DNA of 4,588 nt, taken from a virus. Its lineage: Duplodnaviria > Heunggongvirae > Uroviricota > Caudoviricetes. Below, piece by piece: positions 2,477-2,901 of the stretch. Both the position numbers and the translations under genes were made by a program. Under the pieces are notes generated by a model. The model searched no databases. It was not told the DNA's origin and worked only from the letters and a program-made list of their open reading frames with translations. How positions within the stretch are numbered: the first letter of the stretch is position 1; every line of letters begins with the position of its first letter. The stretch lies in the IMG/VR virus record IMGVR_UViG_2700989171_000008; one strand, given 5' to 3'.

Positions 2477-2692
2477 ATGAAATCCATGGACAAAATTTCA
2501 ACGGGCATTGCCTACGGCACCTCCGCAGGCAGTGCTGGCTACTGGTTTTTACAGTGGCTTGATCAGGTCAGTCCGTCACAGTGGGCTGCGATTGGTGTAC
2601 TGGGGAGTCTGGTTCTGGGCTTCCTGACTTATCTGACAAATCTGTACTTCAAAATCAGAGAAGACAAGCGTAAGGCTGCGAGAGGTGAATAA
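2477..2692 (+). CDS. S: S21-type pinholin with dual-start motif (antiholin from Met1, holin from Met4)
   Basis: 71 aa, [71 protein letters not shown], essentially the phage 21 S2171/S2168 sequence as recalled. Two in-frame starts (2477 and 2486), two hydrophobic segments, GGAGG 7 nt upstream. Confidence 0.9.
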
Positions 2693-2765
2693 TGTCGCCA
2701 TCATTACGGTAAGCGCCCCATCAGCGACGTCTTGTGAAAATTGTCCTGTCTGGCAACAATCGCGC

Positions 2766-2775
2766 NNNNNNNNNN
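2766..2775. other. Assembly gap (N10) of unknown true length
   Basis: Ten N immediately upstream of a second, in-frame holin 3' segment. Confidence 0.8.
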
Positions 2776-2901
2776 GTCAGGCCATCACAGTGGGCTGCGA
2801 TTGGTGTGCTGGGAAGTCTGCTTCTGGGGCTTCTGACTTATCTGACGAATCTGTATTTCAAAATAAGAGAAGACAAGCGTAAGGCTGCACGGGGAGAGTA
2901 A
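2776..2901 (+). CDS. Second S21-type holin copy, 3' portion only (5' end lost in gap)
   Basis: In-frame translation [41 protein letters not shown] matches the C-terminal 41 aa of the holin at 2477-2692 with 3 amino-acid changes, while the DNA is only about 90% identical (mostly synonymous changes). Stop TAA at 2899-2901. Confidence 0.6.

Follow-up and report, generated by a model that had tools for sequence, protein, structure and literature searches.

The window, by which we mean the whole stretch of 4,588 nt analysed here, is divided into four pieces by three runs of N, each exactly 10 N long (Table 1). The first three pieces carry the end of a DUF968/HNH gene, the RusA gene, the antiterminator gene Q, a cluster of tRNA genes, a complete holin gene and the first codons of the endolysin gene rrrD, the last of these running into an insertion sequence (IS). 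The fourth piece opens inside a second holin gene, continues through a gene of unknown function, an endolysin gene and a shortened Rz spanin gene, and ends inside another IS. We refer to the two sources as prophage A (contigs 1-3, holin A) and prophage B (contig 4, holin B), after the loci of finished genomes to which the pieces map.

Table 1. Features of the window and what each assignment rests on; L numbers denote reference loci used for comparison.
Feature	Positions	Strand	Evidence or content
Contig 1 (piece 1, prophage A)	1-1722	+	100% identity over 1722 nt, L017 (CP012735.1) 6580-8301
DUF968/HNH gene, 3' part	80-421	+	Pfam DUF968
RusA	422-787	+	Pfam
Antiterminator Q	784-1467	+	Pfam Phage_antiter_Q
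tRNA-Ile, 5' part, cut by spacer 1	about 1669-1722	+	Annotated at the matching place in L002
Spacer 1, N10	1723-1732	.	True small gap; end of tRNA-Ile lacks 19 nt (AATCCAGCAAGGGCCACCA)
Contig 2 (piece 2, prophage A)	1733-2247	+	100% identity, L017 8321-8835
tRNA-Lys (UUU)	1734-1810	+	ARAGORN
tRNA-Thr (UGU)	1813-1888	+	ARAGORN
tRNA-Gly (UCC)	1892-1966	+	ARAGORN
Spacer 2, N10	2248-2257	.	No gap; flanking contigs overlap by 207 nt
Contig 3 (piece 3), main part	2258-2708	+	Holin upstream region, holin A, first 17 nt of rrrD
Holin A, full-length S21-type, 71 aa	2477-2692	+	216/216 identical to WP_000839572 in L002
rrrD endolysin start, 17 nt (ATGTCGCCATCATTACG)	2692-2708	+	ATG at 2692 overlaps holin stop; annotated at the matching place
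IS66-family left end, 57 nt, tail of contig 3	2709-2765	+	IS match and junction in finished loci
Spacer 3, N10	2766-2775	.	Read as a false join of prophage A to prophage B; flanks map to distant loci
Contig 4 (piece 4, prophage B)	2776-4588	+	100% identity over all 1813 nt, L007 (CP012735.1)
Holin B, 3' part, codons 31-71 and stop, 126 nt	2776-2901	+	100% identical, L005-L008 and L010-L012
209-aa gene, between holin B and endolysin	2905-3534	+	phrog_1085, unknown function, E = 1.2e-73
Prophage B endolysin, phage lysozyme, 177 aa	3600-4133	+	PF00959, E = 5.4e-24; phrog_7 endolysin
Rz spanin, truncated, 134 aa	4130-4534	+	PF03245 and phrog_13
IS600 left end (IS3 family), window ends inside	4532-4588	+	Thousands of matches in E. 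coli genomes

Both holin sequences match the Pfam family of the phage 21 holin S (PF04971, Phage_holin_2_1) well above its curated cut-off of 26 bits, the first copy with 121.5 bits (E = 1.4e-35) and the 41 residues of the second with 66.8 bits (E = 1.6e-18); the PHROG holin families matched were phrog_9876 and phrog_20. Holin A begins with MKSMDK, in which the dual-start motif Met1...Met4 can be read directly. The two-start motif of S21 gives rise to a 71-residue antiholin and a 68-residue holin, and the S21 family are pinholins, whose small holes depolarise the membrane and so release a signal-anchored (SAR) endolysin. The protein identical to holin A is labelled class II holin family protein or essD in RefSeq, and the likeness to phage 21 S21 and DLP12 essD extends to the next gene, the start codon of the rrrD endolysin gene overlapping the stop of holin A (TAATG).

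In prophage A, rrrD is cut after codon 6: the junction, read directly, gives MSPSLR and then a stop supplied by the IS. An IS66-family, ISSfl3-like element begins at 2709 with its left terminal repeat (GTAAGCGCCCC..., GTAAGCGCCCCATCAGCG...). Matches to this repeat were found in 667 E. coli genomes, 1,127 in total, and every one of them lies immediately 5' of an IS66 tnpA/tnpB/transposase set; one of these sets carries the annotation ISSfl3 family. Contig 3 thus breaks off within a multicopy repeat, the left end of an IS66-family element, and such repeats are normal break points for short-read contigs. The junction between rrrD and the IS66-family element, followed by tnpA and tnpB, is present in finished S. 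flexneri loci (L013-L018 and L020), and none was found in 5,426 complete E. coli genomes. The segment 2693-2765 was also considered as coding and rejected, the MSPSLR* reading frame being meaningless and the segment consisting of the rrrD start and the IS66-family terminal repeat.

Two further features of the Q and tRNA region deserve mention. A GC-rich hairpin with a T run (AAACCCGCCCACAAGCGGGTTTTTTGT) lies at 1536-1562, just 3' of Q, where the Q-modified late-transcript terminator of a lambdoid phage would be expected. Contig 2 carries on past tRNA-Gly as the non-coding stretch upstream of the holin, and in the sister prophage a tRNA-Arg takes the place of tRNA-Lys at the second tRNA position, with 15 differences between A and B concentrated in that gene.

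In prophage B the 209-aa gene, for which a search of Pfam gave no match, starts 3 nt past the holin stop, in the window as well as in L001 and L005-L012; it keeps its position between pinholin and endolysin in all related loci seen, and it looks like an accessory gene inserted into the lysis cassette. The N-terminus of the endolysin downstream is hydrophobic and rich in Ala and Gly, and resembles a signal-anchor-release (SAR) domain. Rz, with Rz1 embedded in its +1 frame from 4350, is 134 aa long compared with 155 aa for the intact homologue in L001, and its stop codon (4532-4534) is supplied by the first bases of IS600. In many finished S. flexneri genomes exactly this 134-aa product is encoded, with IS3-family genes next to it on the 3' side; the gene downstream of Rz is annotated there as an IS3-like element IS600 family transposase, and 4532-4588 is identical to other IS600 copies in L013-L020. 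Of the partners of an S21-type cassette, Rz and a lysozyme (PF00959) whose N-terminus is hydrophobic are present in prophage B, and the rrrD start alone in prophage A. Judged by its sequence, each prophage carries an ordinary S21-type lysis cassette with a predicted pinholin. The genes themselves are ordinary when set against the phage 21/DLP12 system, but the partner genes here are broken, rrrD by the IS66-family element and Rz/Rz1 by IS600, and in this lineage each cassette is disabled past its holin gene.

The original prediction saw in 2477-2901 two pinholins in tandem, the second truncated at the gap, about 90% identical to the first in DNA and different from it at three protein positions, and took this to be the signature of a second functional allele. 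The 126 nt at 2776-2901 align ungapped with the last 126 nt of the holin A reading frame (2567-2692) at 110/126 positions, so that the DNA identity is 87.3%, somewhat below the first estimate, and the three replacements are confirmed (S32R, V46L and F49L), with 11 further codons silently different. Reading of the frame and the PF04971 match likewise bear out that the segment encodes the last 41 residues of an S21-type holin, ending in a proper stop (TAA). A blastn comparison of 2776-2907 with the holin A region of a reference gave E = 2.6e-40, and the likeness of the two holin pieces, as the alignments have it, is far beyond chance. It should be noted that S32R, six bases from the contig edge and a Ser in the E. 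coli reference, was considered as a contig-end error and rejected, as all finished S. flexneri loci have G at this site, giving Arg.

Over the shared part, 13 silent differences stand against three replacements (dN/dS = 0.058, Nei-Gojobori), and the value for holin B against holin A at full length is 0.056. That the 126-nt piece is the remnant of a decaying holin pseudogene, left by an old tandem duplication, is extremely improbable: within the window the second copy does lack residues 1-30, and with them the start codon and the first transmembrane domain, but its substitution pattern is not that of a decaying gene, finished genomes have the identical sequence (100%) as the 3' end of an intact gene, and the piece abuts a run of N rather than genomic sequence. 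The identification of the second copy as a functional allele therefore holds. The low dN/dS (0.06) reflects two intact functional alleles that diverged in separate prophages, and it is uninformative on duplication.

Where the pieces belong can be read from finished genomes. Our comparison set consisted of 5,426 complete E. coli genomes and of finished S. flexneri loci retrieved by exact look-ups of the Rz and RusA proteins. In E. coli FDAARGOS_944 (NZ_CP065613.1, circular, 5.07 Mb), piece 3 maps to about 0.65 Mb, and piece 4 to about 5.02 Mb. One of its loci (L002) has the order DUF968, RusA, Q, tRNA-Ile/Lys/Thr/Gly, class II holin, rrrD and lysis protein, and is matched by pieces 1-3 at 99.1-99.7% identity; the other (L001) has tRNA-Ile/Arg/Thr/Gly, class II holin, a 209-aa hypothetical protein, lysozyme and lysis protein, and is matched by piece 4 at 99.3%, with 125/126 identical positions between 2776-2901 and its holin.

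Closer matches came from Shigella. The exact look-up of the 134-aa Rz led to many finished chromosomes that hold all 1813 nt of piece 4 at 100% identity, and that of RusA led to prophage A in the same chromosomes. One of these, CP012735, is that of Shigella flexneri 1a strain 0228 (PMC5429569). In CP012735.1, where piece 3 matches the prophage A locus at 502/507 positions with the rrrD::IS66 junction included, holin A lies at 2,875,013-2,875,228 on the plus strand and holin B at 4,266,550-4,266,765 on the minus strand. The two genes are 1.39 Mb apart on opposite strands, and the tandem arrangement does not survive this mapping. Nor does the truncation. Contig 4 starts at base 4647 of the finished loci L005-L008 and L010-L012, which is nt 91 of a holin B gene called there at locus positions 4557-4772, 71 aa long and with the same N-terminus as holin A; in all seven of these loci, which are identical to piece 4, the gene called immediately before the 209-aa gene is the full-length holin, with Arg32. 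The second holin is uncut in the genome, and its truncation comes solely from the start of the contig. Finished genomes thus present what the original prediction had named as the observation that would speak against a tandem, namely a single holin directly before the 209-aa gene, with 2693-2765 at another locus. Of the two explanations it had offered, two holins within one prophage can be dropped, and the stitching together, at the gap, of contigs from two related prophages is the one that finished-genome mapping upholds.

Searches with sequence joined as in the window agree with this. Tandem holins were found in 0/5,426 complete E. coli genomes, and no second holin copy was found in the phage collection, where all 25 matching records are single-copy. 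When 2258-3600 (1343 nt) was used as the query, its best places in the complete E. coli genomes spanned 1134 nt; the shortfall of 209 nt equals the spacing of the repeat, so the best-matching genomes have one holin. For a query across 2640-2765, coverage did not exceed 55% in any E. coli genome, because the downstream part of this query is an IS end. A search around spacer 3 for inverted repeats or other structure found none.

The other two spacers show how the window was put together. Around spacer 1, contig 1 ends at position 8301 of the prophage A locus of CP012735.1 and contig 2 starts at 8321. Around spacer 2, 2041-2247 repeats as 2259-2465 with 98% identity and five differences (repeat family D1), because the adjoining ends of contigs 2 and 3 share 207 nt of the reference; these two contigs map to overlapping intervals of both L002 and L017, and the five differences are sites that vary between prophage A and prophage B. 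The duplication of 2041-2247 is a second false duplication, of the same artefact type as that of the holin. Reading frames of 65 aa and 55 aa that had been listed across the N run were rejected as artefacts without biological meaning.

We conclude that the tandem holins are almost certainly a scaffolding artefact, in which contigs of two related defective prophages were joined across an N10 spacer; this judgement is made on the assembled letters and on their mapping to finished genomes. The window would be a piece of a draft short-read scaffold from a Shigella flexneri-type genome with at least two related, IS-riddled lambdoid prophages, its four contigs having been strung together through N10 spacers of fixed length and most likely ordered along a reference prophage. 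Contigs 1-3 would come from prophage A, with Q, tRNA-Ile/Lys/Thr/Gly, pinholin A and rrrD interrupted at codon 6, and contig 4 from prophage B, with pinholin B, the 209-aa gene, the SAR-looking endolysin and Rz/Rz1 cut by IS600. Contig 3 would have stopped in the multicopy IS66 end, and contig 4 would have started at nt 91 of holin B, about where A and B become too different for collapse or bubble-merging by the assembler. Placed side by side, the two contigs would then look, falsely, like a complete holin gene with a second, 5'-truncated one behind it, and the excess of silent differences would reflect the long divergence of two functional alleles rather than a duplication.

Several observations are in keeping with this explanation. 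In finished genomes of this lineage the flanks of spacer 3 lie at separate loci, with 100% identity for piece 4, and contig ends fall at repeats (IS66-family, IS600) or at a point of divergence between A and B (the start of contig 4, between variable sites of the holin). A tandem duplication would have both copies on one uninterrupted molecule, but here a scaffold spacer lies between them. Fixed N10 spacers, contig ends at insertion sequences or divergence points, overlapping neighbours and split mapping are equally the marks of collapsed-repeat or reference-ordered scaffolds in drafts with several lambdoid prophages, and compared with the known scaffold artefacts of Shigella and STEC short-read assemblies we found no difference; the window is a textbook case. 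Two counterpoints should be kept in view. Contig 4 begins at nt 91 of the holin with no overlap to contig 3, and the 40 B-specific nucleotides just upstream of it (holin nt 51-90) occur nowhere in the window, so that their loss by collapse is something we infer. In addition, none of the finished S. flexneri loci examined has a prophage A that agrees fully with the head of piece 3, the two differing at 5-6 sites each time.

It could also be imagined that the strain really carries the junction, an IS-mediated rearrangement, by recombination between IS copies or by a deletion next to the IS66 element, having fused prophage A, just past its holin, to the inside of holin B. Shigella genomes do rearrange through IS copies, the last bases of contig 3 are indeed those of an IS66-family end, and the gap that spacer 3 stands for could contain an IS. 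The start of contig 4 argues otherwise: it (GTCAGG...) continues a full-length gene, with identical DNA, in every finished genome, it shows no right-end IS sequence where other contig ends of the window keep 57 nt of IS, and it coincides with the A/B divergence point rather than with an IS boundary. Moreover, spacer 2 shows that this scaffold joins even overlapping contigs regardless of continuity, and the arrangement was seen neither in the E. coli set nor in any of the finished S. flexneri loci examined. We regard such a fusion as very improbable; were it real, it would make a hybrid lysis region in which an intact pinholin and a 5'-deleted one precede the 209-aa gene and a predicted working endolysin.

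The composition of contig 3 bears on how many prophages are mixed in the scaffold. Its head (2258-2405) has the B allele at 6/6 sites that vary between the two CP012735.1 prophages, and the remainder has the A allele at 23/23 such sites, holin included, the two blocks being separated by a stretch of 121 nt (2406-2526) that is identical in A and B. The B-type sites fall within 2301-2405 and the A-type sites within 2527-2694. Against the finished S. flexneri loci that have the rrrD::IS66 junction, piece 3 shows 4-5 mismatches, all in the head. This pattern is what a collapsed or copy-switching contig would look like, and the 121-nt stretch is a place where a short-read assembler can switch copies. 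The source strain could also hold a further recombinant copy, and piece 3, with its B alleles in the head and A alleles in the tail, might then be a faithful contig of a third prophage, the scaffold mixing three prophages instead of two. That B/A mosaics do exist is shown by a complete E. coli genome, NZ_AP027764.1, with 99.5% identity to window 2259-2679 (bases 2-422 of piece 3), and related genomes offer up to 18 matching places; however, finished S. flexneri loci with the rrrD::IS66 junction have an A-type upstream region, and we consider a third prophage unlikely. On either view of contig 3, as a collapsed chimera or as part of a third prophage, the tandem-holin reading is false.

In summary, the holin repeat is real, and its tandem arrangement and truncation are, with only slight residual doubt, artefacts of scaffolding. 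Both prophage loci, with identical sequence and the same IS junctions, are found in several finished S. flexneri chromosomes and are indistinguishable from the IS-decayed cryptic lambdoid prophages of this species; the underlying loci are already public, and what had looked like a new feature is not a real one but ordinary. The case carries a caution: where a Shigella or E. coli genome has several lambdoid prophages, an N10-joined draft can show false tandem duplications, and open reading frames are then called by gene finders across the spacers. The underlying biology, which raises no new question, is that of two defective prophages, each with an intact S21-type holin and with downstream lysis genes broken by insertion sequences.
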